A stretch of DNA of 64,000 bases from Ilumatobacteraceae bacterium (GCA_022843125.1 JALHOG010000001.1:6088-70087), one strand, 5' to 3'; positions 3,619-44,502 are shown, numbered from the stretch's first letter. The notes: generated by a model from the sequence alone, not told the origin. Translations and numbers: made by a program.

Positions 3619-3790
3619 CTGCGGTGAGCCGAGCGGCTCGCCGAGCCACGGCGCGCAACGGAAGGTCACCGATCGTGGGGGAGCGCTACAGTCGGCCGGA
3701 TGGCGGCGGGAACGTGTGCGCGACGCGAGCGCGTCGCGATCGTCCTCGTGCGCCGGACGCTGCGGATCGGATGCGCGCTGGTGATGCTCT

Positions 3791-12444: not shown

Positions 12445-12464
12445 GGGTGTCTCCTGTTTCTGCG

Positions 12465-18553: not shown

Positions 18554-18834
18554 CTGATGTCCGTTCTCGTCGATCCCGCCTGATCGCTGCCCCGAGCAGA
18601 CAGCGATCACGATGGTAGCGGCGCGCACCGCCGAGCGTCGCCGGTGCTGACCGCGTTGCAGGGTGAGTTCACTCAGGGTTCTCTCAAGAAGGACGGGTCG
18701 CCCTCCGATAGGCGATCGATGAAGCAGAAGTCGGTCGACCGCGCATCGACAAGGGGCTACCGTTGCGCCGGGCGATCTCCGGCGCCGACCGATCGACCAG
18801 GTTCGGCGGGTCTGCAGATCGAGGCGGAGAAGAG

Positions 18835-26400: not shown

Positions 26401-29400
26401 TGGGCGATGAGTCCGCCCCGGTGGGCGTGCTGCTCGCCGGTTCGGGCGGCGACGTCGAGGGAGCGATGTCGCTCTGGCTCGATCAGGCTGCGGACGCCGT
26501 CCGCTGGCTGTCGAACACGTCGACCGACCCGCGCTTCGTCGCACTCACCTCGGCGGCGATGCCCGCTGGAGGCTCGGTCACGAACCCCATCGACGCACTC
26601 GCGATGGGTGCGGTCCTGGTGGCGCCCCGCGAGTACGCCGGGCTCGCGACGGCCCTGGTCGATGTCGTCGAGGGTGCCGACGTCGACATCGGTGCGATCG
26701 TCGACGAGATCGAGGGGGCGAGCGGCATCGTGGTGCTGGGCGACGGGCAGCGCCGCTCGCCGGGACCGGTCGCCGAGGCGCCGACATCGTTCGACGCGCA
26801 GCCGGGGATCCGGCACGGCGGGACCTACGTGGTCACCGGTGGATTGGGCGGGATCGGTGAGGTGATCGCAGCGCACCTCGCGACGCAGCACGCGACCAAC
26901 CTGGTGATCCTCACCACCGACGACCTCCCCCGGGGGATCGATCGCGACCGCTTCCTTCGCCGGCACGCGTACGACCACCCCACCTGCCGCCGCCTCCGGA
27001 GGATCGCCCATCTCGAGCAGCTCGGCGTCAAGGTGGTCGTCGAGCGCGCCGACGTGAGCGACCCCGACCAGATCCGGGCGGCACTCGACGCTGCCGAGCG
27101 GACCGTCGGTCCGATCGACGGTGCGATCCACGCTGCGGGCCGGTTGCGCGACCGCCCGATCGGGCTCGCCACGCCCGACGACCACCGGTTCGTCATCGAG
27201 CCGAAAGTCGGCGCGGCGGTCGTGCTCGCGTCCGAGCTCGCACGACGCGGCGCCGATCTGCTCGTGCTCGTGTCGTCGACGAGCACGATCCTCGCTCCCG
27301 AGGGCCAGATGTCGTACGTCGCTGCCAACGGTGTGCTCGACGCGATGGCCGGCGACCGGAACGGACTCCGGATCGTGACGCTGTCGTCGGGCGTCTGGTC
27401 GGGTCTCGGCATGGCGACCGAGGCCGGCCGGCGTTCCCGACTCGCGCTTCCGGGCGGCGACGCGCTGGAGCACCCGGTGTTCGCCGAGGGAGGGCTCGAC
27501 CATCGCGGCGATTTCGTCGCGACCGGGCAGCTCCACCCGCAGCACCACTGGGTGGTCGATGATCACCGGACTGCCGATGGCACAGCGGTCCTGCCCGGAA
27601 CCGGGCATGTGGCGCTCCTGCTCGCAGCGGCCCGGCTCGCCGGGGTGAACCACCCGCAGCTCGACGACGTCACGCTGATCGAGCCCCTGATCGTCCCCGA
27701 TGACCGTCCGGTGACGGTGCGGGTCGTGGTCGAGCGCGACGTCGACGGTCGCAGGGCAGTGCGCGTCGACAGCGATGGTGGAGGGGGCGCACAGTGGACG
27801 ACGCACAGCGAAGCGACCGTGTCGGATGGGCCCGCCGCAGCGCGCCGGATCGACATCGATGCGATCGTCGCACGCTGCGGACTCGATGCGGGTCATCCCA
27901 TGGCGGCGGCGGCGGAGCACCTCGTGCTCGGGCCGATGTGGCAGCTGGACGGCCAGGTGTGGCTTGGCGACCGCGAGGCCTTCGGACGGGTCGCAGGAGG
28001 CGACGACACCGATGTCGACGACGGATGGATCGCACATCCCTCGGTGGTCGATCTGGCCACCGGTGTCGCGATCGCGCTGGCCGCATCGGAAGGTTCGCAG
28101 CTCTTCGTGCCCGTTGCGTACGAAGCGGTGCGTCTCAGCGCTCCGGTGATGGGCCCCTGTGTCGTACACGCGACGCGGCGCCCCTCCGACACCGGAGACC
28201 TCGTCGCCGACATCGTGATCGCGAATGCGGATGGCACGGCACTGCTCACGATCGACGGTCTCCACCTTCGCGGGATCGACGTCTCCGTGTTGTCCAATGC
28301 ATCCCAACACCACACGGCCGGAGCACCGGGCGGAGCGGGAACGGACCGCGGCGTGCTCGATCTCGCCGAGCCGCTCGGCCTGCGCCCCGAGGAGGCACTT
28401 CCCTGGTTCGATCGTCTGGTGGGGTCCGACCTCGACCGGGTCATCGTGACGTCGATCGACCTCGAATCGCTGCGACGCACCGAAGCACCGGCTCACGGGG
28501 GCACGCCTGCGGCGGTCGACCGACCCGGCGTCACGGCCGGTCTCGACGATCAGCTCACACTGATGTGGCAGGAACTGCTCGGCGTCGCCCAGGTCGGACC
28601 CGACGACGACTTCTTCGACCTCGGCGGGCACTCCCTCATGGCGATCCGCCTCATGACGCGCATCAAGCGCGAGCTCGGCGTGCGCTTCGAGCTCTCGACG
28701 ATCTTCGAGGCATCGACCGTCCCTGCGCTCGCGGCCCTCGTCCGGCAGCAGCGCCCGGACATCGATGCGGCCCTGTCGTCGTCATCGGGTGAGGCCGCAG
28801 CCGCGCCCCTCGCCGTCGGTCAGATGCCGGCACCAGTGCGCAAGCAACTCGTGACGATCAGTCGTCGTGGGGAGCGGCGGCCGTTCTACGTGGTGCACGG
28901 TGCCGGCGGCAATGTGCTGTTCCTGTCGACGCTCGCACGCGCGCTCGCCGGAGATCGGCCGATCCACGGCTTCCAGGCGATCGGCGTCAACGAAGGTGAG
29001 ATCCCCGATCGGTCGATCGAGGAGATGGCGGCCCGCTACGTCGCCGAGCTGCGAGAGCACTCCCCGGCCCCCTATCTCCTGGGCGGGTACTCGGGCGGTG
29101 GGATCGTGGCGCTCGAGATGGTGCGGCAGCTCGCTGCGCTGGGTGACCAGGTGGAGCACCTCGTCCTGTTCGACAGCGCACCACCGGGAACCACCTGGCC
29201 ACGATTCCGCGTCCGCTGGACCCGTCTGCTCCGCCGGCTGCTCGCCGGCGAGGCGGCACCCGTCAAGGCGCACACCATCCGGGGCGTGAAGGCGTCGCTG
29301 CGGCGAGTACTGCCGGAGCGGGCCGAACAGCGCCAGGAGCATGACCTGCAGGAGCGAGCGCTCGGCTACGCCGGCGACGACACGGGATTCGTCAACCTCT

Positions 29401-29693
29401 TCTACTATTTCTCGGCGACTGCGGACCAGTACAGCATCGGCACCTACGACGTCGATGTGACCGTGATGAAGGCCAACCACGTGTGGCCGGTTCACCGCGA
29501 CGACTACTACTGGTCCGACTACATCGTCGGGCAGCTCACGTGGCGCAGCGTCCCCGGGGATCACCACTCCATGTTCTATCCGGAGCACGCACCGGCACTG
29601 GCTGCGGCGGTTCGCGCCGTGCTCGACCCGCTCGACGCGGCGAGCGCGCCCCTTGACACAGACGGTGGTCGGGCAGCCGCGGATCGCCCGTGA
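23493..29693 (+). CDS. type I polyketide synthase, KS-AT-KR-DH-CP-TE
   Basis: ORF 23295..29693. ATG 23493 overlaps the upstream stop as ATGA. The KS motif TACSTS has Cys at 24042-24044, followed by EAHGTGT and NIGH. The AT motif GHSLGE has Ser at 25368-25370. The KR has GTYVVTGGLGGIG (26821-26859) and a SYVAAN Tyr at 27315-27317. The DH has HPVF...DDHRTADGTAVLPG with His at 27564-27566, then LGPMW and HPSVVDLATG. The carrier motif FFDLGGHSL has Ser at 28632-28634. The TE has GGYSGGG (29083-29103). Confidence 0.95.
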   Translation: MSVQDDANAETDIAIVGMSGRFPGAPDAEALWERVVAGDDCLADLDPRSLIAAGVDAALVRRPEFVPRAGVIEGVDQFDHDFFGISHRDASVMDPQHRHFMESAWEALESSGNTPEGFDGAIGVFAGSGMNTYLLHNLLTNPSLVEQLGWFLLRHTGNDKDFLTTTLSYRLGLRGPSVNVQTACSTSLVAVHLAVQSLLSFECDLALAGGVTIEFPHGRGYEYREGEILSPNGRCRAFDAASDGTVITGGAAVVALRRLADAQQNGDPILAVIKGSAVNNDGNRKVGYLAPSVDGHADVVKEALTVSGVDPRSIGLLEAHGTGTAVGDPIEVAALTEAFRSGTADQGFCRLVSTKPNIGHLDTAAGTASLIKVVQALRHGILPPLANHTAPSPLLGIERTPFVLSAEAAPWTADGPRRAGVSSLGVGGTNAHVVVEEAPPVPPTPAAVPGQIITLSGSSRAAVDDAAERLAAFIERQPETNLADVAHTMITGRRVHRHRRVVAVTDASSAPAELRSTDRRRCPTAEAPAERPQIAFVFPGGGSQYPGMGAGLDARFDEFHRVRREGIEIVRRLGGADLDPLLSDGGDADLLRQPTASLPAVFITSTALARQWQTWGVEPDVMVGHSLGEYVAAHLAGVISYEDALRLVVVRSALMERAAVGGAAMLVVPLPEAEVVRRLPAELSLATVNTDDECVVAGPADAVSRFADALTGEGIEVTRIPLAAAAHSSMLDGVLDEFEAVVRTVTLHSPQRPYLSNVTGTWITEQQATDPRYWVQHLRGTVRFADGLRTAIGERTTVVVELGPGQTLASYARRSGLPVRAISTLRHPDDLVSDVNHTLGAFAQLWTHGVDVDLDHTTGEGRGEGRRKLRLPTYPFQRVRCWIEPGSGSALGGSNPSASTDIEPAVERFADVDQMGWQLTWVEAPDPERVASERRWIVVGGADAVVDELRCRGRTVVRRDRLVLDDAELVGDESAPVGVLLAGSGGDVEGAMSLWLDQAADAVRWLSNTSTDPRFVALTSAAMPAGGSVTNPIDALAMGAVLVAPREYAGLATALVDVVEGADVDIGAIVDEIEGASGIVVLGDGQRRSPGPVAEAPTSFDAQPGIRHGGTYVVTGGLGGIGEVIAAHLATQHATNLVILTTDDLPRGIDRDRFLRRHAYDHPTCRRLRRIAHLEQLGVKVVVERADVSDPDQIRAALDAAERTVGPIDGAIHAAGRLRDRPIGLATPDDHRFVIEPKVGAAVVLASELARRGADLLVLVSSTSTILAPEGQMSYVAANGVLDAMAGDRNGLRIVTLSSGVWSGLGMATEAGRRSRLALPGGDALEHPVFAEGGLDHRGDFVATGQLHPQHHWVVDDHRTADGTAVLPGTGHVALLLAAARLAGVNHPQLDDVTLIEPLIVPDDRPVTVRVVVERDVDGRRAVRVDSDGGGGAQWTTHSEATVSDGPAAARRIDIDAIVARCGLDAGHPMAAAAEHLVLGPMWQLDGQVWLGDREAFGRVAGGDDTDVDDGWIAHPSVVDLATGVAIALAASEGSQLFVPVAYEAVRLSAPVMGPCVVHATRRPSDTGDLVADIVIANADGTALLTIDGLHLRGIDVSVLSNASQHHTAGAPGGAGTDRGVLDLAEPLGLRPEEALPWFDRLVGSDLDRVIVTSIDLESLRRTEAPAHGGTPAAVDRPGVTAGLDDQLTLMWQELLGVAQVGPDDDFFDLGGHSLMAIRLMTRIKRELGVRFELSTIFEASTVPALAALVRQQRPDIDAALSSSSGEAAAAPLAVGQMPAPVRKQLVTISRRGERRPFYVVHGAGGNVLFLSTLARALAGDRPIHGFQAIGVNEGEIPDRSIEEMAARYVAELREHSPAPYLLGGYSGGGIVALEMVRQLAALGDQVEHLVLFDSAPPGTTWPRFRVRWTRLLRRLLAGEAAPVKAHTIRGVKASLRRVLPERAEQRQEHDLQERALGYAGDDTGFVNLFYYFSATADQYSIGTYDVDVTVMKANHVWPVHRDDYYWSDYIVGQLTWRSVPGDHHSMFYPEHAPALAAAVRAVLDPLDAASAPLDTDGGRAAADRP

Positions 29694-29852
29694 ACACCGG
29701 GAGAACAGAGAGAAATCCGGTAGCGGGGCAGCCGCGCGTTTGATAACCATGTGTGATGACCGGCGGGTCAGCGGTTCAATGCTCGTGCTACGTGGTGCGA
29801 GCAGACCTCATTCGACGGGCATCATCGGTGAGTGGCGGGAAGGAAGCGAGTC

Positions 29853-31166
29853 ATGGAAACACAAGCGATGCAGGTGGCGATCATCGGCACGGGCTACGTC
29901 GGGCTCACCACTGGGGTGTGCCTCGCTCACCTCGGCGCCCACGTGATCTGCTGCGACGTCGACGAGCGCAAGGTCACCCTGCTCAAGAACGGGGTCGTGC
30001 CGATCGTCGAGGACGGCCTCGCCGAGGTCATGCAGGGTGCGATCGACGCCGGACGGCTGTCGTTCGTCGTCGGGAACGATCCGGCGGTCCGCACCGCTGA
30101 TGTCGTCTTCCTCTGCGTGCCGACCCCGCAGGACGAGGACGGCTCCGCCGACCTGTCGTATGTGCGTGCGGCAGCCACCGAGATCGGTCCGATCCTCAAG
30201 CCCGGCGCCGTGGTCGTCAACAAGTCGACCGTGCCGGTCGGTTCGTTCGGTGTCGTCGGAGAGACCCTCGACCGGGACGACGTGTCGGTCGTGTCGAACC
30301 CCGAGTTCCTCCGCGAGGGCACGGCGCTCCACGACTTCCTCAATCCCGACCGGGTCGTGATCGGGTCCGACGACGAGCGGGCAGCGCAGATGGTCGCCGC
30401 CCTGTACGCGGGCCTCGACACCCAGTTCGTCTTCACCGATCCCACGTCGGCCGAGCTCATCAAGTACGCCGCGAACGGGTTCCTCGCGATGAAGATCTCG
30501 TTCATCAACAGCGTGGCCGCACTGTGCGAGCACGTCGGCGCCGACATCGCTCGCGTCGTCGAGGGCATCGGGAGCGACCGCCGGATCGGGTCGCAGTTCC
30601 TCCAGCCCGGCCCCGGCTGGGGCGGGAGTTGCTTCCCGAAGGACTCGCGTGCCCTCGTCTCGACCGCGGCACAGCACGGGTACGACTTCTCGCTCATGCG
30701 CGGCGTGATCGACATCAACGAGCAGCAGTACGACCGCATGGTGCACAAGGTGATGGCGGCTGTCGGTCGTGACGTGTCGCTCGACGGTGTGGTGGTGGGT
30801 GCGCTCGGGCTCACCTTCAAGGCCGGCACCGACGATCTGCGCGAGTCGCCCGGCCTCCGGGTGATCGACGTGCTACGCGCTCGAGGCGCGACGATCCAGG
30901 CCTACGACCCGACGACCACCGGTGAGCTCAACCCGATCCAACGGGAACGGCTCGCCGGGCTCAACCTCAAGGCGGGTGCACTCGATGCAGCGCACGGTGC
31001 CGACGTCGTGGTCATCCTCACCGAGTGGCCCGAGTTCACCACGCTCGATCTGGAGAAGGTGGCGAGCGTCATGCGTGGCGCAGCGGTCGTCGACTGCCGC
31101 AACCTGCTCGATGGAGACCTCGTCCGCAGCGCGGGGCTCGGGTATCAGGGGGTCGGCCGCTCGTGA
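29853..31166 (+). CDS. ugd: UDP-glucose 6-dehydrogenase (UDP-glucose/GDP-mannose dehydrogenase family)
   Basis: ORF 29832..31166. Contains [23 protein letters not shown] and GGSCFPKD with the catalytic Cys. ATG 29853 is preceded by GGAAGGAAG. ATG 29868 is an alternative. UDP-GlcNAc versus UDP-Glc specificity cannot be decided by eye. Confidence 0.85.
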
Positions 31167-32140
31167 TCACACATCGCACCTTGGTCGCCGGCGGTGCCGG
31201 CTTCCTCGGGTCGCACCTGTGCGACCTGTTGATCGAGCGCGGCGACCATGTCGTGTGCGTCGACGACTGCAGCACCGGCCGGATCGAGAACATCGAGCAC
31301 CTGGTCGATCACGATCGCTTCCGTTTCATCCATCATGACGTCGTGCAACCGGGGCTCGACGAGCTCGTCGCCGGCGTATGGGCAGGCGAGCACCCGACCC
31401 GGGTGATGCACATGGCGAGCCCGGCCTCCCCGCCGGAGTACCTGCGCCGTCCGATCGACACCTTGGAGGTCGGCAGCGTCGGGACGAAGCGCCTCCTCGA
31501 CCTGGCGCTCGTCGCGGGCGCACGGTTCTTCCTCGCCTCCACCAGCGAGGTCTACGGCGACCCGCTCGTGCATCCCCAGCCCGAAACGTACTGGGGCAAC
31601 GTCAACCCGATCGGCGAACGCTCGGTGTACGACGAGTCGAAGCGCTACGCCGAGGCGATCACGATGGCCTACCACCGCGAGTTCGACCTCGACATCCGGA
31701 TCGTGCGCATCTTCAACACGTACGGTCCGCGCATGCAGGCCGACGACGGCCGCGTCGTGACGAACTTCGTCAACCAAGCGCTGCGCGGCGATCCGCTCAC
31801 CGTGTTCGGCGACGGCAAGCAGACCCGCAGCTTCTGCTACGTCGACGACGAGGTGCGAGGGTTGCTCGCACTGATGGAGGGCCCGGTCACAGGGCCGGTC
31901 AACATCGGCAACCCCGGCGAGTTCACGATGATCGAGTTCGCCGAACTCGTGCTCGAGCTCACCGGGTCGCCATCGGTGATCGAGCATCGGCCATTGCCCT
32001 CCGATGATCCGAAGGTGCGTCAGCCCGACATCACGATCGCCCGAGACGTCCTCGGCTGGGAACCGACGATCGAGCTCCGCGACGGCCTCACCCGCACGAT
32101 CGACTGGTTCCGGGCGAAGTCGGCCGAGCGCGTCGCTTGA
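31163..32140 (+). CDS. uxs: UDP-glucuronate decarboxylase (UDP-xylose synthase family)
   Basis: Part of ORF 31025..32140. Contains [15 protein letters not shown] and [39 protein letters not shown], typical of UXS. GTG 31163 overlaps the ugd stop as GTGA. Confidence 0.85.
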
Positions 32141-32700: not shown

Positions 32701-33906
32701 TCACCCGAACGTCGCGTCGAGTGCGGCGGTGAGATCGGCGACGAGGTCGCCGGGATCTTCGAGACCGACGGAGAAGCGCAGGTGGCCGAGCCGCCGGAAC
32801 GGTTCCGGATAGTAGGCGACCCTGGGTCCGTCGGTGCCGACATGGACGATCAGCGATTCGTCGTGGCCGAGCGACACCGCCGACGTGATCACACGCAGGT
32901 TCGCGACGAATCGGTTCTGGGTTGCCGGGTCGCCGTCGACGGCGAACGCCATCATCGCGCCGAAGCCACGACCGCCGAACTGGCGCACCGCCAGCGCGTG
33001 CTGTGGATGGGCATCGAGGCCCGGGTACGCCACGTAGGCCACCCGAGCGTCGGCGGCGAGCGCTTCGGCGAGGTGCACTGCGGTGTCCATCTGGCGCTGT
33101 AGCCGGAGCGGCAGGGTGATCGAACCGCGAGCGATGAGCCACGCGTTGAACGGTGAGATCACGCCGCCGACGTCGACCATCGCATCGGTCTTGATCGGCT
33201 GGACGAGCTCGCGCCTTCCGATCACGGCGCCACCCATCGCGTCGCCATGGCCGTTGATGAACTTCGTGAGCGAGTGCACCACGAGGTCGGCGCCGTCGGC
33301 GAGCGGGCGGTAGAGCGGGGGCGGCGAGAACGTCGAGTCGACCGAGACGATCGCCCCTGCGGCATGCGCGAGTTCGGCGACCGCAGCGATGTCGGTCACG
33401 CGGGTCGTCGGGTTGGCGATCACTTCGAGGTGGACGAGCTTCGTGTCGGGTCGGATTGCCGCACGCACCGCATCGAGGTCGGACGTGTCGACGAAGGTCG
33501 CCTCGATGCCGTACCGCTCGGGGAGGAGGTCACGGAAGAGACGGAACACCGCCTCGTACGCGATGTCGGCGACGACGACGTGATCACCGGTGCGGAGATG
33601 GGTGAAGAACACGGCGTGCAGCGCAGCAACGCCCGATGCCAGGACGACGGCGTCCTCGCCACCGTCGAGCACCGCCAGCTTCTGCTGCAGGGCCAGCTGG
33701 TTGGCACCTGAGTTGCGCGTGTACAGGGGGATGTCGGTGCCCGACCAACTGATCGCCGACGGGTCGTCGGGCAGGGCGTACGAGTTCGCCATGACGATGG
33801 GGGAGCGGATCGCCCCCGAGCCAGCGTCGATCGCGTTACCTGCATGGACTGCCTGGGTGGCGAACGCCAGCGTGGTCGGGTCGTGCTTGTCGGGTCGCGG
33901 CGTCAC
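32701..33906 (-). CDS. Cys/Met-metabolism PLP-dependent enzyme (cystathionine gamma-synthase / gamma-lyase / O-acylhomoserine sulfhydrylase fold)
   Basis: ORF track. Contains TLAFATQAVHAG...IVMANSY...YTRNSGANQLALQQKLAVLDGGEDAVVLASG...VVHSLTKFINGHGD. The TK in SLTKF is the PLP lysine. It starts 9 nt after the NRPS stop. Confidence 0.85.
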   Translation of the reverse strand: MTPRPDKHDPTTLAFATQAVHAGNAIDAGSGAIRSPIVMANSYALPDDPSAISWSGTDIPLYTRNSGANQLALQQKLAVLDGGEDAVVLASGVAALHAVFFTHLRTGDHVVVADIAYEAVFRLFRDLLPERYGIEATFVDTSDLDAVRAAIRPDTKLVHLEVIANPTTRVTDIAAVAELAHAAGAIVSVDSTFSPPPLYRPLADGADLVVHSLTKFINGHGDAMGGAVIGRRELVQPIKTDAMVDVGGVISPFNAWLIARGSITLPLRLQRQMDTAVHLAEALAADARVAYVAYPGLDAHPQHALAVRQFGGRGFGAMMAFAVDGDPATQNRFVANLRVITSAVSLGHDESLIVHVGTDGPRVAYYPEPFRRLGHLRFSVGLEDPGDLVADLTAALDATFG

Positions 33907-33915
33907 TCACGAATC

Positions 33916-36900
33916 CTACGGGGCGACGCAGGCAGCGAGCTCGGACTCGATCGCAGCGCCGAGCGCGGACGAGTTCGCCATCTCGACGAGACCGGCGTGC
34001 GTGCCACACACGGCGCGTGTGGTGATCCGGCCGGTCGTGATGCCGAACCAGCCCGTTTCGACGGCGCTGCGCCGATCCGGCGCGTTCCACTCCTCGCTGA
34101 GGATGAGCGCGACGTCCGTGCAGAGGCTGGGGGGTTGATACACGGCGTGGGCCGTCGCGTGTTGCCGCCTGACCTGAGCGATGCGGACCTCGGTCGGCGA
34201 TCCCACCCGCGTCTGAACGACGCGCTCGTACACCAGATGGAGCTGCCATGAGATCGCCTGCCGAAGGCGTCCGTCTCGGAAGTACTGCCATGCACGACGC
34301 ACGGGATGGACGCGGCCACGAGCCGACAACGGTGCACCCGGTGCCTCCGCGTCGACGAGCACCAGCAGATCGGCGGCTTCACCGCGCCGCTCGAGCTGGA
34401 AGACCATCTCGGCGGCGACCGTACCACCGGCGCAGTGGCCGCCGATGAGGTATGGCCCAGCTGGCTGGACATCGCGGATCTCTGCGAGGTAGTGCTCGGC
34501 CATCGCCTCCACGGTGGCGTGAGCCGAGTCCCCGGTGTCGATTCCCTGGGGTTGCAGCACGTAGAGGGGGCGACGGCCGAGCACCTGTCCGAGGTTCGCG
34601 AAGCTCAACGACGTGATGAGGTACGGCGCCACGTAGAAGAAGGGGCGTTCGTCACCCGCCGGCTGGATCGGCACGAGCGAGGTCCACTTCGATGCCGTCC
34701 CTGACTCGACGGCGGTGGCGAACTCCATCAACGTCGGCGTCTGGAAGATCGACGACAACGGGACCTCGACGCCGAGCCGCCGCTCGACCTCGCTGATCAG
34801 TCGGATCGCGAGGAGGGAGTGGCCGCCGAGGTGGAAGAAGTTGTCGTGGCGTCCGATGGTGGGGGTGTCGAGGACGGTGGCCCAGATGGTGGCGATGGTG
34901 GTTTCGGTGCCGGGGTGGGGTGGTTGGTGGGTGGTGTCGTGGTGGGGGGTGTGGTGGGTGGTGGGTGGTGGGAGTTGGTTGCGGTCGATCTTGTTGGTGG
35001 TGGTGAGTGGGAAGGTGTCGAGGGGGACCACGATGGTGGGGATCATGTGGTCGGGGAGGGTGCGTTGGCACCAGGTTCGGATGTCGTGTGGTGTGGGTGG
35101 TGTGGTGTGGGGTGTGGTGGTGATGTAGGCGACGAGGCGGGTGTCGTCGGGGGTGGGTTGGTGGGTGGTGACGGCGCTGGCGGTGATGTTGGGGTGTTGG
35201 TCGAGGGTGGCTTCGATTTCGCCGAGTTCGATGCGTTGGCCGCGGAGTTTGAGTTGGTGGTCGGTGCGGCCGTGGAAGTGGTAGGTGGGGGGTTGGTCGG
35301 GGTTGGTGTGTCGGTGGGCGAGGTCGCCGGTGCGGTACATGCGGTCGCCGGGGTGGAAGGGGTCGGGGAGGAAGCGTTCGGTGGTGAGGTCGGGGCGGTT
35401 GTGGTAGCCGCGGGCGACGCCGTTGCCGGCGATGTAGAGCTCGCCGATGGTGCCGTCGGGGACGGGTTGTTGGTGGTCGTCGAGGACGTAGACGCGTGTG
35501 CCGGGAATCGGCGACCCCAACGCCACCACCGACGCGAGTGCGGCGGAGAACCCGTCGGGCAGTCGCTCGAAGGTCGACCACACCGTGGTCTCGGTCGGGC
35601 CGTAGACGTTGAACACACGGCCGGCGACCCCGGCGAGCTGAGTCGCGAGCTCCGGGGTCATGACCTCGCCGCCGCACACGGCAGTGAGTGAGGAATCGGG
35701 CGGGAGCCCTCCGTCCAGGAGCATTCGCCAGCGGGTCGGTGTCGCCTGCACCAGCGTCGCCCCGTTCGACCGCACGAGGTCGATCAGCGCCCGGGGGTCG
35801 GTCGTCTCATCGCGTGTGGGCACGGTGATCGACGCTCCGACGGCGAGCGGGAGCAGGATCTCCATCAACGAGGGGTCGAAGGACAGTCGAGTGAGCGCCA
35901 CGACGACGTCGTCGTGCGTGAGCTCGAGCCGTGCCTGCGCGCCCACCAGGAAGTGCAGCAACTGGCGTCGCTCGACCAGGACGCCCTTCGGTCGGCCGGT
36001 CGAGCCCGACGTGTACATGATGTAGGCCGAGTCGTGCGGCCCTCCGCGGGGAGCGACTGGGCTGCCGACCGGCTGCGAGAGCACGTCCGAGATGTCGACG
36101 GTGACGGTCGTTCCGGGGCCGGAGTCCTGGTCGCTGCGGGTGGTCGCCGTTCGGTCGACCAGCATGAGCGCACATTCGCTGTCTTCGGTGATGAACCGCA
36201 GACGGTCGACGGGCAGGTCCGGATCGAGCGGAACGAAGGCGGCTCCCGCCCGCAGCACGCCGACGACCGCGGCGATCATCTCGGGGGAACGCTCGAGCCG
36301 GATGCCGACGCGTGTCTCGCGACCGGCACCCCGGTCGATCAGGAATGTCGCGACTCGATCGGCCCAGTCATCGAGTGTCCGGTAGGTGACGGAGTCTCCG
36401 CCGCAACGCACGGCGATCTGCTCAGGGTCGGCGATCGCCCGCTGTCGGAGAGCGCTGTCCGGGTCGGGCATGTCCGAGTTCGGCTCGGCTGCTGCGGCCG
36501 CCCACTCCTGGCGCAATGCAGCCGTCTCGGCACCGGAACACAGGGGGAGCACCACCGTCGAGATCTCCGGCGTCTCGATCCCCGCTTCGAGGATCCGCCA
36601 GAAGCGCTCCAGCGTCTCCTCGATCCGCGCACGATCGAACAGGTCCGTGTCGTACTCGACCACGGCGAGCTGCGCAGCGGTGCTGATCGCGAGCGACAAG
36701 TCGAGCTGCGTCGCTCCGCGGTCGACGTGCACGAACTCGACGTCGACACCATCGAGTTGGGGTAGCCCGAACGGAGCATTCAGAACGTTGAAGAACGTCC
36801 GATAGAGCGCCGGGCGCTCCCGCAGCCCGGCGGTGCCGAGACGCGTGACGACCTGAGCGAACGGTGCGTCCTGATGATCGAACGCTTCGAGCGAGCCTGC

Positions 36901-39900
36901 TTCGACCGTGCGGACGAGTTCGAGGAACGTCGGTGCTCCAGATGTGTCGGTCCGCAGGACCAGCGTGTTCACGAGCGACGCGACGAGGTTCTCGCTCTCG
37001 AGCCAGTTGCGATTGGCGATCGCCGTCCCTGTGGTGACATCGCTCGCTCCGGACAGGCGTGCAACGACGAGTTGGAACGCAGCGAGCATCACCATGAACG
37101 GCGACACCTGGTGCGTTCGGCAGAAGGCCTGGAGTGCGTCGAACAGCCCCTCGGGGAACGGGGCCGTGATCGTCTCGCCCTGGGATGTGACGACGAGCGG
37201 TCGCGGTCGGTCCGATGGGAGCTCGGGTGCGCGTGCGTCGCGAAGCCGGTTCACCCAGTAGTCGATGTGCTCGTCGACGATGCGCCCGTCGACCAGCGCA
37301 CGATGCCACCGGGCGTACTCCCCGGCGTGTCCGGGATCTTGCAGGTCGGCGCCGTGTCCGAGCCGGAGCGCGTTGTACGACGCAGCCACCTCGCTGGTGA
37401 GCAACCCGAACGCCCACTCGTCCCCGATGATGTGATGCATCGACACGAGCACCCCGTGGTCGTCGTCGGCGAGCCGGTAGAGCTTCAGACGGATCAGGGG
37501 CAGCTGGTCGAGTCGGAACGGTTCGGTCGCGTCGGCGGTGATCGTGGCGAGGGCCGCATCCCATCCGAGCGGGGACTGACCTGCGCCGAGGTCGACGATC
37601 TCGAGCCCGACATCGGGTGCGTCGTCGAGGACCCGTTGAACGGGTGCGCCGTCGACGACCGGGAAGATCGACCTCAGGCCGGCATGGCGCTGCACGACGG
37701 TCGCGACGGCATCCTGGAGATGGTCCAACTCGAGCGGCCCTCGGAGGCGGCCGGCGAACGTGATGTGGTAGGCGAGCCCGTCGGGTTCCAGCTCGTGCAG
37801 GAACCACATGCGCTCCTGCGAGTAGCTGAGCGGGAAGTCGCCGGCATGGTTCGTTCCCTGGTCGTCGGCGCTCGCCGGGCGTACCGGGACGACGGCGTGC
37901 TCGTCGATGGCGGCGGCCAACTCGGCGACGGTCGGGTGCCTGAACACCGCGCTGACCGGGACCTCGACGCCGAGCTCTCGCCGGAGACGCGACGCGATGC
38001 GGGTGGCGAGGAGGGAGTGGCCGCCGAGGTGGAAGAAGTTGTCGTGGCGTCCGATGGTGGGGGTGTCGAGGACGGTGGCCCAGATGGTGGCGATGGTGGT
38101 TTCGGTGCCGGGGTGGGGTGGTTGGTGGGTGGTGTCGTGGTGGGGGGTGTGGTGGGTGGTGGGTGGTGGGAGTTGGTTGCGGTCGATCTTGTTGGTGGTG
38201 GTGAGTGGGAAGGTGTCGAGGGGGACCACGATGGTGGGGATCATGTGGTCGGGGAGGGTGCGTTGGCACCAGGTTCGGATGTCGTGTGGTGTGGGTGGTG
38301 TGGTGTGGGGTGTGGTGGTGATGTAGGCGACGAGGCGGGTGTCGTCGGGGGTGGGTTGGTGGGTGGTGACGGCGCTGGCGGTGATGTTGGGGTGTTGGTC
38401 GAGGGTGGCTTCGATTTCGCCGAGTTCGATGCGTTGGCCGCGGAGTTTGAGTTGGTGGTCGGTGCGGCCGTGGAAGTGGTAGGTGGGGGGTTGGTCGGGG
38501 TTGGTGTGTCGGTGGGCGAGGTCGCCGGTGCGGTACATGCGGTCGCCGGGGTGGAAGGGGTCGGGGAGGAAGCGTTCGGTGGTGAGGTCGGGGCGGTTGT
38601 GGTAGCCGCGGGCGACGCCGTTGCCGGCGATGTAGAGCTCGCCGATGGTGCCGTCGGGGACGGGTTGTTGGTGGTCGTCGAGGACGTAGACGCGTGTGCC
38701 GGGAATCGGCGACCCCAACGCCACCACCGACGCGCCGGGCTCGATCAGCTGTGCTGTGGCGAACACCGTCGATTCGGTCGGGCCGTAGGTGTTCCACACA
38801 GCGCCGGCGCGAGCGTTGAGGGCCGCAGCGAGATCCAGCGTCAGAGCCTCGCCGCCGCTCACTGCGATGAAGTCGCCGCGTCCCTCCCATCCCCACTCGA
38901 GCAGCATCCGCCACGCCGTCGGGGTCCCATCCATGTATGTCGCACCCACCGTGTCGAGCAGTCGGCTCAACGCTGCCGCGTCGGTTCGGGTGGAGTCGTC
39001 GGCGATGACCAGCTCGGCGCCGACCAGGAGCGCCATGAAGATGTCGGTGACGGAGGTGTCGAACGAGATGGCCGACTGACAGACCACCACGTCGTCGGGC
39101 CCCACACCGGTCAGATCTGCGAGAGCCAGTGCCCGCTGAGCAACCGCCCACTGCTCGATCTCGACGCCCTTCGGGGTCCCGGTCGAGCCTGACGTATACA
39201 TGACGTACGCGAGACTGTCCGGTCCGACCGCCGGGAGTTCTGCTGTGGAGTCGGGGAGATGCCGGGGGTCGATGCGCGTGATGTCTGCGAGCGGCCCAGG
39301 AACGGCCGCATCGGAGATGAGCACCGTCGCACCTGCATCCTGCACCATGAACGCCATCCGATCGACCGGGAGGTTCTGGTCGATCGGGACGTACGGGACC
39401 CCCGCCTTCAGGCAGGCGACGAGCGCTGTCACGAGGCCCACCGAACGCTCGATGATCACGCCGGCCGATGAACCATCGGTGGTGTGGAGGGCGATCGCCC
39501 GGGCCATCGCTTCGGAGTGGTGCTCGAGTTCGGCGTACGTGAGGTGTGTCTCACCGCAACGAACGGCGGTGCGATCGGGCCATCGCTGGCACCGGTCACG
39601 GAGCAGTGCGGCCAAGCTCGTCGTGTCGGTCGGTGCCGATGCGATGGCAGCCCACTCGGCTGCGAGGGCGGCGCGCTCGTGGGTGCCGAGCAGCTGCAAC
39701 TGCGCGACGTCGCGATCGACGTCGACCCGGCCGGTCATGATCACTCGCCAGACCCGATCGAGCAACACCCTGACCTCGTGGGCGTCGAAGTACTCGCTCC
39801 CGAACTCGGCGCCGAAGTAGAGGCGGTCCGAACCGTCCGAGAGCAGCAGTGTCAACGGGAGAGCCGCAGGCCGGTGCGTATGGCTGACCGAGTTGATCTC

Positions 39901-41091
39901 GAGGCCACCGAGTGTCGCCACGATGCCGGGAACGCTGAGTGACGTCCCGGCGATGGTGTCGGGGTCGACCAGTCGGGTCGACTTCTGCCAGATGAATCCG
40001 ATCGTGGCCGAGGGCATCGGGAGCCCTTCCGACCTCAGCACCTCGACGACCTGTTGGAACGGGATGGCGCGGTGCGCCTTGGCCTCCGCGATCTCGTCGG
40101 CGACTGATCGGACGACTGTCCGGAACGAACTGCGCGGCTGGGCCCGCTGCAGCAACAGACTCGGTTCGGCGAAGCATCCGATCGTGCGTGCCGTGCGATG
40201 GGTGCGCCCGGCCCAGGTCGTCACCACGGCGATCTCATCGAGCTGTTGGGTCCGGAGGAGCACGACGTGCAGCGCGGCGAGCACGATCGCTTCGCGCGGC
40301 ACGCCGAGTTCACGTGCGAGCGACACGAGCGCGTCGTTCTCTTCGGACGAGACATCGCGGTGGACGATCTCGCCACGGTGTGGATCGGCGCCCGGTTGCG
40401 GGGTGGGGAGGCGGGGGACCGTCGCAGCACCACCCGCTGCGAACGTTCGGCGCCAATGCGCGAGGCACGCGTCCGCTCGCGGGTGCTCGTCGAGGGCCGA
40501 TTGATCAGCGACATGATCGGCCCATCGCCGACCGGACACCCGACCGGACACCCGAGGGGTCTCGGGCTGACCGCCTCGCAACCCGCCGTAGTGCGAGTTG
40601 ATCTCGGTGAAGAGCACCGCGAGCGACCACAGATCGACGACCAGGTGGTGCGCGGCGAGAACCACGACGTGGTCGTCGTCGCTGACGCGCAGGACCGCGA
40701 TCCGACACAGCGGTCCGCGTTCCAGGTCGTACGCGCGCGCGGCGAACTCCGACACGTACGACGACACACGTTGCTCGTCCCAGTCCGGAGCGTCGACCAC
40801 CGTGTGCTCCATCTCGGCCGGGGCGTCGAGCCGGAGCCGAGGTTCGCCGTCGACGTCGATCAGCCGAGCCCCCAGGATCTCATGGCGCGCCACGACGTCG
40901 AGCGCACCGGCCACGTAGGCGTCGGTGTCGAGCTGCTCGACGATTCGGAACGTGGCGATCAGCCTGTTGACGATCGAGTCGCCGACGATCTGCTCGCGGA
41001 TCCACATCGATCGTTGAACGGGTGTGAGCGGCAGCTGATCGGCTGTCGGTGCCACATGACCGTGACTGGTCTGGGTATGCGGCGCCGTCAT
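33916..41091 (-). CDS. non-ribosomal peptide synthetase, C-A-PCP-C-A-PCP-TE
   Basis: ORF 33916..41193. Start taken at ATG 41091 (MTAPHTQTS). C1 has HHLVVD (40633-40650). A1 has A3 YTSGSTGTPKG (about 39166-39201). The PCP1 Ser codon is 38014-38016. C2 has HHIIGD (37420-37437). A2 has A3 YTSGSTGRPKG (about 35983-36021). The PCP2 Ser codon is 34816-34818. The TE spans about 34680-33919 and carries GGHCAGG. Confidence 0.95.
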   Translation of the reverse strand: MTAPHTQTSHGHVAPTADQLPLTPVQRSMWIREQIVGDSIVNRLIATFRIVEQLDTDAYVAGALDVVARHEILGARLIDVDGEPRLRLDAPAEMEHTVVDAPDWDEQRVSSYVSEFAARAYDLERGPLCRIAVLRVSDDDHVVVLAAHHLVVDLWSLAVLFTEINSHYGGLRGGQPETPRVSGRVSGRRWADHVADQSALDEHPRADACLAHWRRTFAAGGAATVPRLPTPQPGADPHRGEIVHRDVSSEENDALVSLARELGVPREAIVLAALHVVLLRTQQLDEIAVVTTWAGRTHRTARTIGCFAEPSLLLQRAQPRSSFRTVVRSVADEIAEAKAHRAIPFQQVVEVLRSEGLPMPSATIGFIWQKSTRLVDPDTIAGTSLSVPGIVATLGGLEINSVSHTHRPAALPLTLLLSDGSDRLYFGAEFGSEYFDAHEVRVLLDRVWRVIMTGRVDVDRDVAQLQLLGTHERAALAAEWAAIASAPTDTTSLAALLRDRCQRWPDRTAVRCGETHLTYAELEHHSEAMARAIALHTTDGSSAGVIIERSVGLVTALVACLKAGVPYVPIDQNLPVDRMAFMVQDAGATVLISDAAVPGPLADITRIDPRHLPDSTAELPAVGPDSLAYVMYTSGSTGTPKGVEIEQWAVAQRALALADLTGVGPDDVVVCQSAISFDTSVTDIFMALLVGAELVIADDSTRTDAAALSRLLDTVGATYMDGTPTAWRMLLEWGWEGRGDFIAVSGGEALTLDLAAALNARAGAVWNTYGPTESTVFATAQLIEPGASVVALGSPIPGTRVYVLDDHQQPVPDGTIGELYIAGNGVARGYHNRPDLTTERFLPDPFHPGDRMYRTGDLAHRHTNPDQPPTYHFHGRTDHQLKLRGQRIELGEIEATLDQHPNITASAVTTHQPTPDDTRLVAYITTTPHTTPPTPHDIRTWCQRTLPDHMIPTIVVPLDTFPLTTTNKIDRNQLPPPTTHHTPHHDTTHQPPHPGTETTIATIWATVLDTPTIGRHDNFFHLGGHSLLATRIASRLRRELGVEVPVSAVFRHPTVAELAAAIDEHAVVPVRPASADDQGTNHAGDFPLSYSQERMWFLHELEPDGLAYHITFAGRLRGPLELDHLQDAVATVVQRHAGLRSIFPVVDGAPVQRVLDDAPDVGLEIVDLGAGQSPLGWDAALATITADATEPFRLDQLPLIRLKLYRLADDDHGVLVSMHHIIGDEWAFGLLTSEVAASYNALRLGHGADLQDPGHAGEYARWHRALVDGRIVDEHIDYWVNRLRDARAPELPSDRPRPLVVTSQGETITAPFPEGLFDALQAFCRTHQVSPFMVMLAAFQLVVARLSGASDVTTGTAIANRNWLESENLVASLVNTLVLRTDTSGAPTFLELVRTVEAGSLEAFDHQDAPFAQVVTRLGTAGLRERPALYRTFFNVLNAPFGLPQLDGVDVEFVHVDRGATQLDLSLAISTAAQLAVVEYDTDLFDRARIEETLERFWRILEAGIETPEISTVVLPLCSGAETAALRQEWAAAAAEPNSDMPDPDSALRQRAIADPEQIAVRCGGDSVTYRTLDDWADRVATFLIDRGAGRETRVGIRLERSPEMIAAVVGVLRAGAAFVPLDPDLPVDRLRFITEDSECALMLVDRTATTRSDQDSGPGTTVTVDISDVLSQPVGSPVAPRGGPHDSAYIMYTSGSTGRPKGVLVERRQLLHFLVGAQARLELTHDDVVVALTRLSFDPSLMEILLPLAVGASITVPTRDETTDPRALIDLVRSNGATLVQATPTRWRMLLDGGLPPDSSLTAVCGGEVMTPELATQLAGVAGRVFNVYGPTETTVWSTFERLPDGFSAALASVVALGSPIPGTRVYVLDDHQQPVPDGTIGELYIAGNGVARGYHNRPDLTTERFLPDPFHPGDRMYRTGDLAHRHTNPDQPPTYHFHGRTDHQLKLRGQRIELGEIEATLDQHPNITASAVTTHQPTPDDTRLVAYITTTPHTTPPTPHDIRTWCQRTLPDHMIPTIVVPLDTFPLTTTNKIDRNQLPPPTTHHTPHHDTTHQPPHPGTETTIATIWATVLDTPTIGRHDNFFHLGGHSLLAIRLISEVERRLGVEVPLSSIFQTPTLMEFATAVESGTASKWTSLVPIQPAGDERPFFYVAPYLITSLSFANLGQVLGRRPLYVLQPQGIDTGDSAHATVEAMAEHYLAEIRDVQPAGPYLIGGHCAGGTVAAEMVFQLERRGEAADLLVLVDAEAPGAPLSARGRVHPVRRAWQYFRDGRLRQAISWQLHLVYERVVQTRVGSPTEVRIAQVRRQHATAHAVYQPPSLCTDVALILSEEWNAPDRRSAVETGWFGITTGRITTRAVCGTHAGLVEMANSSALGAAIESELAACVAP
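34432..34434 (-). other. TE active-site nucleophile codon is TGC (Cys) in the GxCxG motif GGHCAGG
   Basis: Plus strand 34424-34450 reads ccaccggcgcagtggccgccgatgagg. In gene sense this is CTC ATC GGC GGC CAC TGC GCC GGT GGT, or LIGGHCAGG, in frame with the stop at 33916. Confidence 0.9.
34808..35536 (-). repeat. 729-bp direct repeat, copy A (module 2: A-domain A6-A10 region, linker, and start of PCP up to GGHSLLA)
   Basis: Base-by-base comparison by eye found it identical to 38006..38734, at an offset of 3198 bp (a multiple of 3). The encoded 243 aa are identical in both modules. Confidence 0.9.
38006..38734 (-). repeat. 729-bp direct repeat, copy B (module 1: A-domain A6-A10 region, linker, and start of PCP)
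   Basis: Identical to 34808..35536. Divergence begins immediately outside both ends: agtgcgg versus ccgggct on one side, atc versus gtg on the other. Confidence 0.9.
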
Positions 41092-41820
41092 GCGTCCCCG
41101 TCGGGGCGGGGCACAGCGATGGCCGACCGACCGATTCGGCGTCCCCCCGGCACGCCATGCGTCAGCCGACCGCACGAAGCCACGCGAGACCACACGTGCA
41201 CCAGTTGTCTCCTCCGATTGTTGCGGGGGTGAAGGCGTGCGCCGCCCAAGCGTGTGGTCATGTCAATGGTAACCAACCCGCAGGGCTGGATTTGGCATTC
41301 TTGACGAAATCTGCAAACGGCGGCGGGCTGCCCGCGGGTACATCCGGCCCTTGCGGCGCTCTGCACCGCCGGTCGTCAACAGCCGATTCCCTGGATCTGA
41401 TCGGGTGCATCATCGAGCGCGTCTTCGAACAGACCGCACACCTCGCCGACGGCCCTCGACCACATCAGTGCTGCAACTCATCCCGCTCTTCCTGATCGCC
41501 GTGTGGAACCGAATCAACCTGCTCTACGTCGTCATCCGTGGTCGTGTTCGACGATAGTCGATCCTCTCCGAGTGCGGTCTCGAGATGCGGCGACCGGGGA
41601 GTGGGACGTGCACGGTGAATCGGCTCGGTGAACGTCGTCGTCGCTCAGGTCAATGACTCCACCGAGTGACATCTCGACAGGGCCGATGGCTCGGGCAGGT
41701 GCGCTCGACGGAGCCTCACCGGCTCGATCGCCGAAGACGTCGAGGTGAGCGGCAGCAGCCGGGTTCGTGTCGCATCGGAGGGTTACCCGGTTGCGGAGTC
41801 CGGCAGTCGGCGCGATCTGC

Positions 41821-42413: not shown

Positions 42414-43697
42414 TCAGCCCCAGGTGACCGGGAGACGGCTGGGGCCTCGGAAGCTGATGTTGGGGAACGGGACGGTGGCCCGGTCGTCAGCGAGGGCGAG
42501 GGTGGGAAGACGATCGAGGACGACCTCGAGCACGATCCGCGCCTCGAAGCGGGCGAACTTGGCACCGAGGCAGTAGTGGTTGCCCTTGCCGAACGAGATG
42601 TTCTTGACCGCATCGGGCCGGCTGATGTCGAATCCGTCGGGGTCGTCGAACGCATGTGGGTCCCGATTGGCCGCGGCCAGGTTGAGGAAGATCGGGGTGC
42701 CGGCGGGCAGGTCGACGCCGCCGAGCGTGGTGTCGCAGGTGGTGACCCGCCGCCAACCGATCTGCGGCGAGTTCCAGCGGATGACCTCCTCGAGCGCCTT
42801 GGGGACGAGCGTCGGATCGGCCACCAACGCCTGCCACGCATCGCGACGGGGCAGCAGGGACACCAGCGCGTTGCCGATGAGGAGCGTCACGGGCTCGTGC
42901 CCTGCGAACGACAGGCCGTAGAGGATCGACTCGACCTCTCGGTACGACAGGTCGTCCGGGTTCGCGAGGTGGTATCCGATCAGCTCGGACGCCAGATCGT
43001 CACCGGGCTCGGCGCGCTTCCCTGCAGCGAACTCACGGACGTACCGCCAGTACGCCAGCATGTTGGTGGTGATGTCGACCTGCTCGGTCGGGGTCGGCTG
43101 CCCCCAGGAGAAGGCCAACCGGTTGGCGCACCAGTCCTTCAGTTGCTGGTCGTCACGTTCGGGGAAGCCGATGAACCGGAACACGACCTCGCCCGGTAGC
43201 GGGTAAGCGAGCGATGCCACGAAATCGGCGGGTGGCCCCGCGGCGAGCATGGTGTCGACGAGCTCGTTGGCGCGCCGGCGGATGTACGGCTCGAGCGTCT
43301 GGATCCGCCGGTTCGAGAACAGCAGCTTCGTGTAGTTGCGGATGCGGCCGTGGTCGGGCTCCTGGCGGTTCGACATCACCGCGACCGGGTCGAAGTCGGG
43401 CGCGGCGAGCACAGCGGCAGCGTCGGCCGTGATCGGGAAGACCGGATCCTGGACGTTCGCCGACGAGTACACGTCGGGGTTCATGAACACCTCGGTCACC
43501 AGGTCCATCTGCGACACCATGACGAAGCCGAGCGACTCGGCGTAGACCACCGGCGCCGTCTCGCGGATCGCCGACGCGATCGGGTACGGGTCGGCGACGT
43601 ACTCCGCCGCGAGCGGGCTGAATCCGTGGTCGACCGGGCAGCCCGCGGGAATGGGCGGCGGCCCGCTACGGATCTGGTGGTACGCGGTCTCGGTCAT
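42414..43697 (-). CDS. cytochrome P450
   Basis: C-terminal 427 aa of ORF 42414..44321, starting at MTETAYHQ with RBS GAGGGGGA. The heme-binding loop is FGKGNHYCLGAKFA, the EVIRW region gives ExxR, and the I-helix reads GLSFAGHEPV. Confidence 0.9.
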   Translation of the reverse strand: MTETAYHQIRSGPPPIPAGCPVDHGFSPLAAEYVADPYPIASAIRETAPVVYAESLGFVMVSQMDLVTEVFMNPDVYSSANVQDPVFPITADAAAVLAAPDFDPVAVMSNRQEPDHGRIRNYTKLLFSNRRIQTLEPYIRRRANELVDTMLAAGPPADFVASLAYPLPGEVVFRFIGFPERDDQQLKDWCANRLAFSWGQPTPTEQVDITTNMLAYWRYVREFAAGKRAEPGDDLASELIGYHLANPDDLSYREVESILYGLSFAGHEPVTLLIGNALVSLLPRRDAWQALVADPTLVPKALEEVIRWNSPQIGWRRVTTCDTTLGGVDLPAGTPIFLNLAAANRDPHAFDDPDGFDISRPDAVKNISFGKGNHYCLGAKFARFEARIVLEVVLDRLPTLALADDRATVPFPNISFRGPSRLPVTWG

Positions 43698-43827
43698 CGG
43701 ATCCCCCTCGTTGCGCCGACACCCCAGATCGTGACAGCGATCACCGCAACAGGAAAGCCGGTTCTGTACATCCGGGCGATGAGGAGAACTCATCGACGCG
43801 CGCCTCCAGATCGCGGCGGGCGTTACC

Positions 43828-44502
43828 GTGCGACGTGTGTCCAGCCGCGAGCCCGCCGATGATGCCGTCGAGCCGGTGACCCGCGCGCTCGAGGCGCTCG
43901 GGCTGGCGATCGATCGGCCCCAGCTCCGGTTCGGGGCGTCGGCGATCGACGCCGGGGCGATCGCGGATCTCCGGCCGGAGGAGGCGGTCGCGGTCGCCGC
44001 CTCGGTCGCATCGCGTCGCGCCGAGTTCGCGAGTGGCCGAACGCTGCTGCGGCGGGTGCTCGGCGTCGACGTCGCCGTCCCGGTCGGCGCAGATCGGCGC
44101 CCCGTGCTGCCGCCGGACGTCACGGCCTCCGTGGCGCACGACGCCGACCTCGTGATCGTGGCGGTGGCCCGCGACCAACCCTTCACCGTCGGGATCGATG
44201 TCGAACGCGTCGGCGCCGTCGATCGCACGCTCGTTCCGATCGTGCTTCGACCCGACGAGCCAGGCATCGATCCGACCCTCGCGTTCTGCGCGAAGGAGGC
44301 GGTGTACAAGGCGTGGAGCATGGCCGGCGGCCGTTTCCTCGAGCACCACGACGTCCGTCTGTCGATCGTCGGCCCGACCGTTCACGCCGAGGTGCTCGCC
44401 GTCGGGCCCGACGACCCGACGGTGCGGATCGGCGGCGGTTGGGCGACCACCGCGGGGCGTTACGTGGTCCTGGTCGTCGCCGAACCGGTCGGCGCTCGAT
44501 GA
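43828..44502 (+). CDS. 4'-phosphopantetheinyl transferase (Sfp/EntD type)
   Basis: ORF track. Contains SVAHDADLVIVAVA, TVGIDVERV and FCAKEAVYKAW, the PPTase motifs. The GTG start at 43828 is tentative. Confidence 0.8.
   Translation: MRRVSSREPADDAVEPVTRALEALGLAIDRPQLRFGASAIDAGAIADLRPEEAVAVAASVASRRAEFASGRTLLRRVLGVDVAVPVGADRRPVLPPDVTASVAHDADLVIVAVARDQPFTVGIDVERVGAVDRTLVPIVLRPDEPGIDPTLAFCAKEAVYKAWSMAGGRFLEHHDVRLSIVGPTVHAEVLAVGPDDPTVRIGGGWATTAGRYVVLVVAEPVGAR

Follow-up and report, generated by a model that had tools for sequence, protein, structure and literature searches.

Within a 64,000-nt stretch of the genome of an Ilumatobacteraceae bacterium (GCA_022843125.1 JALHOG010000001.1:6088-70087; the whole stretch is hereafter called the window), a single nonribosomal peptide synthetase (NRPS) gene carries in each of its two modules an identical 729-nt cassette, which encodes part of the adenylation domain and the start of the carrier domain. 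We conclude with high confidence that this repeat is a genetic repeat of intense nucleotide skew (GRINS) occupying the segment from motif A6 to the carrier core of both modules, and that it has been subject to long-running concerted evolution by intragenic gene conversion. Comparison with orthologous genes shows that the common ancestor of at least three Acidimicrobiaceae-type lineages already had two copies of the 0.73-kb segment, bounded as they are today, and that the copies have remained the same, or almost so, within each lineage as the lineages grew apart. A first-pass annotation of the window, made from the sequence alone, had noticed the repeat and read it as the trace of one very recent event; it overlooked the intense skew, which makes the repeat a GRINS element, and the persistence of the cassette in related genomes.

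The NRPS gene and its two repeat copies

The gene encodes two modules, each made up of condensation (C), adenylation (A) and carrier (T) domains, followed by a thioesterase (TE) domain. Its parts are listed here in the order in which they are translated, after the gene itself.

33916-41193, minus strand: NRPS gene, C1-A1-T1-C2-A2-T2-TE, longest open reading frame (ORF), 2425 amino acids (aa), GTG start at 41193
38735-39198, minus strand: module-1-specific A1 core from A3 to just past A5, with substrate-pocket positions; not homogenised, groups with module 1 of the orthologues
38006-38734, minus strand: cassette copy of module 1, aa 821-1063
37796-38005, minus strand: module-1-specific rest of T1 after GGHSLLA, which must work with C2; groups by module across genomes
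35537-36015, minus strand: module-2-specific A2 core from A3 to just past A5; not homogenised
34808-35536, minus strand: cassette copy of module 2, aa 1887-2129, content as in the module 1 copy
34598-34807, minus strand: module-2-specific rest of T2 after GGHSLLA, which must work with the TE domain

The database gene call for this NRPS, P0001, starts at 41007 and gives a protein of 2363 aa that is 100% identical to the window NRPS. Pfam finds the Condensation, AMP-binding, AMP-binding_C and PP-binding domains twice each in the ORF, then Thioesterase. The sequence has the features of a type I modular NRPS, with motifs A3 to A10 including the A10 Lys, the carrier Ser (FFHLGGHS), and HHxxxD in both C domains. 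The domain anatomy given in the first-pass annotation was right, except that the gene lies on the minus strand, so that 38006-38734 belongs to module 1.

The repeat had been described as a perfect 729-bp direct repeat within one NRPS gene, with copies 3198 bp apart, in frame and encoding the same 243-aa peptide, and base-by-base comparison bears out each of these points. The two copies agree in all 729 bases, the first base beyond either end already breaks the match, and the spacing of 3198 nt equals 1066 codons. The common peptide of 243 aa runs from ASVVALGSPIPG to FFHLGGHSLLA. In adjacent 100-nt blocks compared at the same offset, identity drops to about 30-55%, and gapped alignment of the two modules gives 54% identity for the 360 nt upstream of the cassette and 48% for the 210 nt downstream. 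A perfect match of 729 nt is far beyond chance, and no other long repeat was found within the 64-kb window, where the cassette pair is the sole one.

The cassette comprises the post-A5 part of the A-core, motifs A6, A7, A8, A9 and A10 (with its Lys), the A-T linker, and the carrier core with the phosphopantetheine-bearing Ser. Motifs A3, A4 and A5 and the residues just past A5 lie outside it and are different between the modules. The statement that the parts bearing the specificity pocket differ between modules likewise stands, with A3-A5 outside the repeat and the A10 Lys inside it: pocket positions 235/236/239 and 322/330/331 differ between the modules, as judged at motif-anchored positions only.

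Nucleotide skew

GRINS, as described by Nivina et al. 2021, are duplicated segments of more than 500 bp that match another part of their gene cluster at over 80% DNA identity, and whose absolute GC and TA skews, measured in 150-nt windows with a 30-nt step, both average above 0.15 (PMC8256042). Their GC and TA skews are correlated and peak at the third codon position, and regions with negative skew show enrichment for Pro, Thr, His and Gln (PMC8256042). The cassette, at 729 nt and 100% identity, lies beyond the thresholds for length and identity, and its mean |GC skew| of 0.58 and mean |TA skew| of 0.47 lie beyond those for skew, with a correlation between the two skews of r=0.78. Three controls give much lower figures: in the rest of the gene the mean |GC skew| is 0.07 and the mean |TA skew| 0.10; in the two equivalent regions of an unrepeated homologue (L041, introduced below) they are 0.08-0.09 and 0.09-0.14; and in 56 other NRPS A6-to-T regions the |GC|/|TA| median is 0.10/0.10 and the maximum 0.25/0.18.

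On the coding strand the cassette has a GC skew of -0.53 and a TA skew of -0.39 (rest of the gene: GC -0.04, AT -0.03), and no other 729-nt window of the 64 kb stands out in skew as the two copies do. The first two codon positions are mildly skewed, the third extremely so (GC -0.85, TA -0.93). At four-fold sites whose amino acids are conserved between orthologues, the composition is C 84%, A 10%, G 6% and T 0%; in the rest of the gene, C and G are about equal at third positions. The encoded protein segment contains 16% Thr, 12.3% Pro, 9.1% His and 4.1% Gln, compared with 7.2, 5.9, 2.8 and 3.4% in the remaining protein, and despite this recoding all catalytic motifs are retained.

Selection on amino acids, of the kind that might give Thr/Pro/His-rich linkers, was rejected as the cause of the skew because it is the four-fold synonymous sites that are most skewed. 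Ordinary codon optimisation was also ruled out, the rest of the gene using C and G about equally at third positions.

The cassette departs from the usual context of GRINS in that it lies in an NRPS gene and not in a polyketide synthase (PKS) cluster, and the PKS gene nearby (23295-29693) is without repeat or skew. Since some GRINS have been noted to sit in NRPS modules and other gene families (PMC8256042), a PKS context is not an essential criterion. A scan of the window for further GRINS or for single-copy skewed regions found none. Elsewhere, an NRPS gene of an uncultured Solirubrobacterales metagenome-assembled genome (MAG) (L029) has near-identical segments at 2263-3739 and 8566-10051, some 6.3 kb apart and with exact runs of up to 280 nt. 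Its A6-to-T region is mildly skewed (0.25/0.16), just over the GRINS thresholds, and it may be another, weaker case of GRINS in an NRPS.

The template strand of the cassette is rich in G and T, with TGG at 5.8 times and TGGTGG at 46 times the background. Four of the eight canonical G-quadruplex motifs that a regular-expression scan detects in the 64-kb window lie within the two cassettes.

34944-34972, plus strand (the template strand): canonical G-quadruplex motif inside a (TGG)n-like run
35139-35165, plus strand: second G-quadruplex motif
38142-38170 and 38337-38363: recurrence of these two motifs in the other copy

RecA is reported to have a preference for TGG repeats (PMC3763553). On the transcript side, the predicted folding energy of the cassette mRNA is -0.21 compared with about -0.47 kcal/mol per nt, much less structured because the transcript is poor in G and U. 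This C-rich, G-poor, nearly unstructured transcript also encodes Pro-rich runs (PPPTT, TPPTP). C-rich, G-poor, unstructured RNA is the classical signature of Rho loading sites, and effects of the cassette on the coupling of transcription and translation are possible, a purely speculative suggestion.

Orthologues and concerted evolution

The closest protein in a collection of 5.8 billion sequences is P0002, with 53% identity and equal length and architecture, followed by P0055 with 41%. The gene for P0002 (L001, on the same contig as L002) lies on a 712-kb contig of an uncultured Acidimicrobiaceae MAG, MFD09779.bin.1.243, and has at the equivalent position a perfect internal repeat of 725 nt that ends at the same codons as in the window. 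In a scan with the cassette alignment across one genome per species, the only further close locus is L003 in a second Acidimicrobiaceae MAG, MFD03551.bin.2.127, where the same cassette is found with the same boundaries and with copies that are 98.9% identical. From here on, W denotes the window gene, L1 the gene of L001/L002 (one contig) and L3 that of L003. The gene of P0055, L041, belongs to a more distant homologue that has no repeat, and its two equivalent regions are 55.7% identical and unskewed.

Other matches to the cassette in the species-representative genomes reach at most 46% amino-acid identity over the full length, with one partial match of 53% over 139 residues, and JGI metagenome contigs yield full-cassette matches of at most 49% amino-acid identity and a single partial one of 55%. 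No outside donor of the cassette was found in these scans, no exhaustive protein-level search with the cassette having been made. Word-index searches gave matches of at most 53% identity for the cassette peptide and four weak matches for the C1 domain, and did not recover the known P0001 and P0002, so that they have no bearing on the existence of additional copies, orthologues or collapsed one-module variants. A plasmid match in a Streptomyces NRPS, 76% identical over a third of the repeat, was judged not relevant.

Identity matrices were made for the upstream, cassette and downstream partitions of the genes from the four genomes. In the flanks, the same module is 79-82% identical between L1 and L3 and 57-68% identical between W and L1, and module 1 is 38-64% identical to module 2 for any genomes among W, L1 and L3. 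The cassette copies are 100% identical to one another within W, 100% within L1 (725 nt) and 98.9% within L3, and 87-92% identical between genomes. Thus cassette copies group by genome and flanks group by module, which is the pattern expected of concerted evolution.

Outside the cassette, W and L1 have 49% amino-acid identity, and their four-fold sites are 43% identical where 37% is expected from composition, that is, they are saturated. The lineages therefore separated long before the last homogenisation. With no difference in 729 nt, the copies can have diverged by no more than about 0.4% (95% bound), which is about 3% of the W-L1 cassette divergence of 12.8%, and this holds independently in L1. 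The tree of the cassettes, (W,(L1,L3)), agrees with that of the flanks. In addition, L1 (L001 12233-12274 and 15407-15448) and L3, but not W, have extra short tracts around A5, upstream of both cassettes, that are homogenised and unskewed. Inside these tracts the codons for pocket positions 322 and 330/331 remain module-specific; on the few sites involved, this would fit a picture in which selection for substrate choice filters conversion events.

Boundaries of the block and proposed history

The 5' boundary of the cassette lies in the non-conserved loop between A5 and A6, and for this reason it is improbable that three separate events should have stopped at one and the same codon. At the other end, identity stops three residues after the Ser of FFxxGGxS in all three genomes. 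This end adjoins a site already known from NRPS engineering: the carrier-core motif FFxxGGxS has been proposed as a natural recombination breakpoint of NRPSs and used for functional chimeras, and the XUT-type breakpoint is described as adjacent to and within the T-domain core motif (Bozhueyuek et al., bioRxiv 10.1101/2022.12.02.518901). The block has the appearance of an exchange unit, one that modules could swap while their substrate choice and downstream docking stay the same.

The most economical history has the block arise once, before the lineages split, and then undergo repeated conversion within its bounds. The two copies would be homogenised by gene conversion that is repeated, non-reciprocal and homology-dependent (RecA-type), and conversion tracts would presumably stop where homology abruptly ceases on either side. 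Selection probably fixes both ends of the block, upstream at the substrate pocket and downstream at the part of the carrier that docks to C2 in module 1 and to the TE domain in module 2. The segment, nearly all C and A on the coding strand, would still encode a working A-subdomain, linker and carrier start, and the complementary G/T-rich strand, with its dense TGG and G-quadruplex motifs, is a plausible cause of the frequency of conversion.

The first-pass annotation had also predicted that the locus could collapse to one module by a deletion of exactly 3198 bp. Such a deletion would be in frame and would leave a C-A-T-TE protein of 1359 aa, and as a prediction from a 729-nt direct repeat the collapse is plausible. 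Since three lineages have kept both modules, any such deletions have not become fixed.

Weighing the evidence

Several points count against a GRINS element under long-running conversion, or limit how far it can be taken. The cassettes are closer between genomes (87-92%) than the flanks are (57-82%), and their four-fold sites are 90.6% identical where 73% is expected once composition is allowed for; this excess similarity could reflect slower change under directional pressure, or lateral exchange of cassettes. The cassette is found in three lineages only, and the two copies of W itself are verified only by analogy with the other assemblies. In L003, the reading frame of the NRPS gene (7684-14791) changes 10 times or more and the giant gene downstream is in fragments as well, with upstream glycosyltransferase-type genes that look intact; the frame changes are either pseudogene decay or consensus indel errors, and part of the difference between its copies may be due to sequencing error or decay. 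GRINS were defined on PKS clusters, mostly of Streptomyces, with NRPS cases mentioned only in passing (PMC8256042). Finally, that features of the G/T-rich strand influence the rate of conversion is inferred.

One alternative, which the orthologues contradict and which is very unlikely, is a single very recent gene conversion or segmental duplication confined to this genome, so that the identity of the copies is a snapshot that will decay. The zero differences in 729 nt speak for it to the extent that the last homogenisation must indeed be recent (divergence of at most about 0.4%), and gene conversion, as proposed in the first-pass annotation, is the right kind of process. What tells against one recent event is that a cassette with the same boundaries has been homogenised in two other diverged genomes, and independent recurrence of its 5' boundary at the same codon in a non-conserved loop is improbable; a one-off event also leaves the skew unexplained. 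Nor are L001 and L003 chimeric or contaminant copies of the window organism, as their cassettes differ from W by about 13%, and outside the cassette the L001 gene differs from W at 51% of amino acids. Comparison with orthologues, suggested at the outset as a check, found the cassette kept in L001 and L003, and it calls for an old origin with repeated conversion and not to one recent event.

We regard as very unlikely a laterally mobile cassette that was already skewed, came from an outside donor and was put into both modules, possibly with exchange between lineages. Its composition is foreign to its gene and its similarity between genomes is above that of the flanks, beyond compositional expectation, as such a cassette would have it. 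However, no donor was found, the best other full-length matches being at most 46% identical in amino acids in species-representative genomes and at most 49% in JGI metagenome contigs; the cassette tree (W,(L1,L3)) matches that of the flanks; and two insertions per genome at identical boundaries would be needed.

An artefact of assembly or polishing, in which the assembler gave two diverged segments the same sequence or used one segment in both places, was a worry of the first-pass annotation and has some force in that perfect repeats are a known hazard and the many indels of L003 betray at least one imperfect related assembly, but it is extremely improbable given that three separate assemblies with different cassette sequences share the architecture, that the ORF is intact and in frame through both copies with boundaries that are codon-exact and common to the genomes, that the related contigs are 154-712 kb long and bear MFD names matching the long-read Nanopore project Microflora Danica (a link inferred from the names), and that L003 shows near-identical but distinct copies to be resolvable.

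Substitution spectrum

A GRINS element kept homogeneous by conversion is thus the reading that we carry forward, and the changes within it bear on how its skew arose. A<->C exchanges make up 51 of the 92 cassette differences between W and L1 and 26 of the 45 polarised changes on the L1 and L3 branches, with one C-to-T change only; these A<->C counts are small, and misalignment in CCA/CAC low-complexity runs could inflate them. The GRINS paper proposes a transition-based origin of the skew, through tautomers or deamination (PMC8256042), with which a dominance of A<->C would not fit well. Together with the low synonymous divergence, the spectrum suggests that the skew may be under continuing directional pressure and is not a relic. 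We put forward only tentatively, and hold it to be rather doubtful, that the skew is actively maintained by a directional process and that the G/T-rich template strand itself drives the high rate of conversion. If this were true, GRINS would be self-reinforcing, recombination-attracting recodings of protein segments.

The thioesterase and neighbouring genes

The nucleophile motif of the TE domain is GGHCAG (34426-34443, minus strand, aa 2251-2256), with Cys where Ser is usual, and the TE motifs of P0002 and P0055 likewise have Cys (GGHCSGS). Cys-type TE domains are known from NRPSs that form beta-lactone and beta-lactam. Directly downstream of the NRPS gene is a gene for a pyridoxal phosphate (PLP) enzyme of the Cys/Met type (32701-33906, minus strand).

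The neighbouring genes on the plus strand are unusual: in the product of 18763-23496, a formyltransferase is joined to an A domain into which a luciferase-like monooxygenase is inserted, and a carrier domain follows; the PKS gene at 23295-29693 has the domains KS-AT-KR-DH-ACP-TE. Genes for a UDP-glucose dehydrogenase and an epimerase/dehydratase lie at 29832-32140, and the same sugar-nucleotide pair occurs near the orthologous NRPS in L001. At 42414-44321 on the minus strand is an ORF of 635 aa with coding-like composition, which matches cytochrome P450 only at aa 504-604, its first 500 or so residues being without a Pfam match; it may have an over-called start or be a gene fusion. Next to the orthologous NRPS is a giant gene of 2945 aa with DUF4082/Big_5 repeats, which has no counterpart next to the window NRPS. 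It contains long tandem DNA repeats (L002 12400-14640; L003 18500-20150) whose periods are 1122, 807 and 315 nt and whose exact runs reach 431 nt.

Significance and comparison with known systems

Nearly all described GRINS are many-copy elements of Streptomyces PKSs, the history of which is hard to read. The present case is minimal, with two copies, exact ends, an unskewed and unrepeated outgroup, and three lineages that let homogenisation within genomes be told apart from divergence between genomes. With it, well-documented GRINS now include NRPS A-T segments and reach an uncultured class of actinobacteria, and it shows that one GRINS element can persist with fixed boundaries across a divergence that saturates synonymous sites. 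The A<->C-dominated spectrum can be tested against the mechanisms proposed for GRINS. For engineering, the boundaries mark a naturally tolerated exchange block, from post-A5 to the carrier core, that spares substrate choice and downstream docking.

The cassette differs from the GRINS of PKSs in its place, an NRPS A-T segment with two copies in uncultured Acidimicrobiaceae-type hosts, where those are in PKS domains, mostly of Streptomyces. The copies are 100% identical here, compared with 75-95% reported for macrolide PKS examples, and the element and its boundaries are common to diverged orthologues, whereas most PKS GRINS are reported to be unique to each synthase (PMC8256042). It resembles them in length, identity within the cluster, magnitude of skew, GC/TA correlation, third-position peak and enrichment of Pro, Thr and His, as well as in having copies that are closer within a cluster than between homologous clusters and in its association with gene conversion. 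We therefore consider the feature to be a clean, minimal example of a known, mechanistically unexplained kind, GRINS, and not a new kind.

The concerted evolution of modules in PKS and NRPS gene clusters, reportedly described by Medema et al. in 2014, is similar in that paralogous segments are closer within a genome than orthologous segments are between genomes; here, however, what is homogenised is a sharply bounded sub-domain block with extreme skew in place of entire domains or modules. At its 3' end the cassette adjoins the T-core breakpoint proposed for XUT exchange units, but only one end matches, since an XUT unit consists of part of T, then C, A and part of the next T, and the cassette begins inside A after A5. 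Swaps and recombination of A-domain subdomains, said to have been reported by Cruesemann in 2013, Kries in 2015 and Baunach in 2021, also involve recombination inside the A domain that splits the pocket-bearing part from the rest; those move the pocket and alter specificity, whereas here the pocket is the part that is not exchanged. Lastly, in the G-quadruplex-dependent conversion of the pilin gene of Neisseria, reportedly shown by Cahoon and Seifert in 2009, a G-rich, structure-forming strand likewise lies at or in a locus with frequent RecA-dependent gene conversion, although this is a resemblance only, the G-quadruplexes of the cassette being known as sequence motifs alone.

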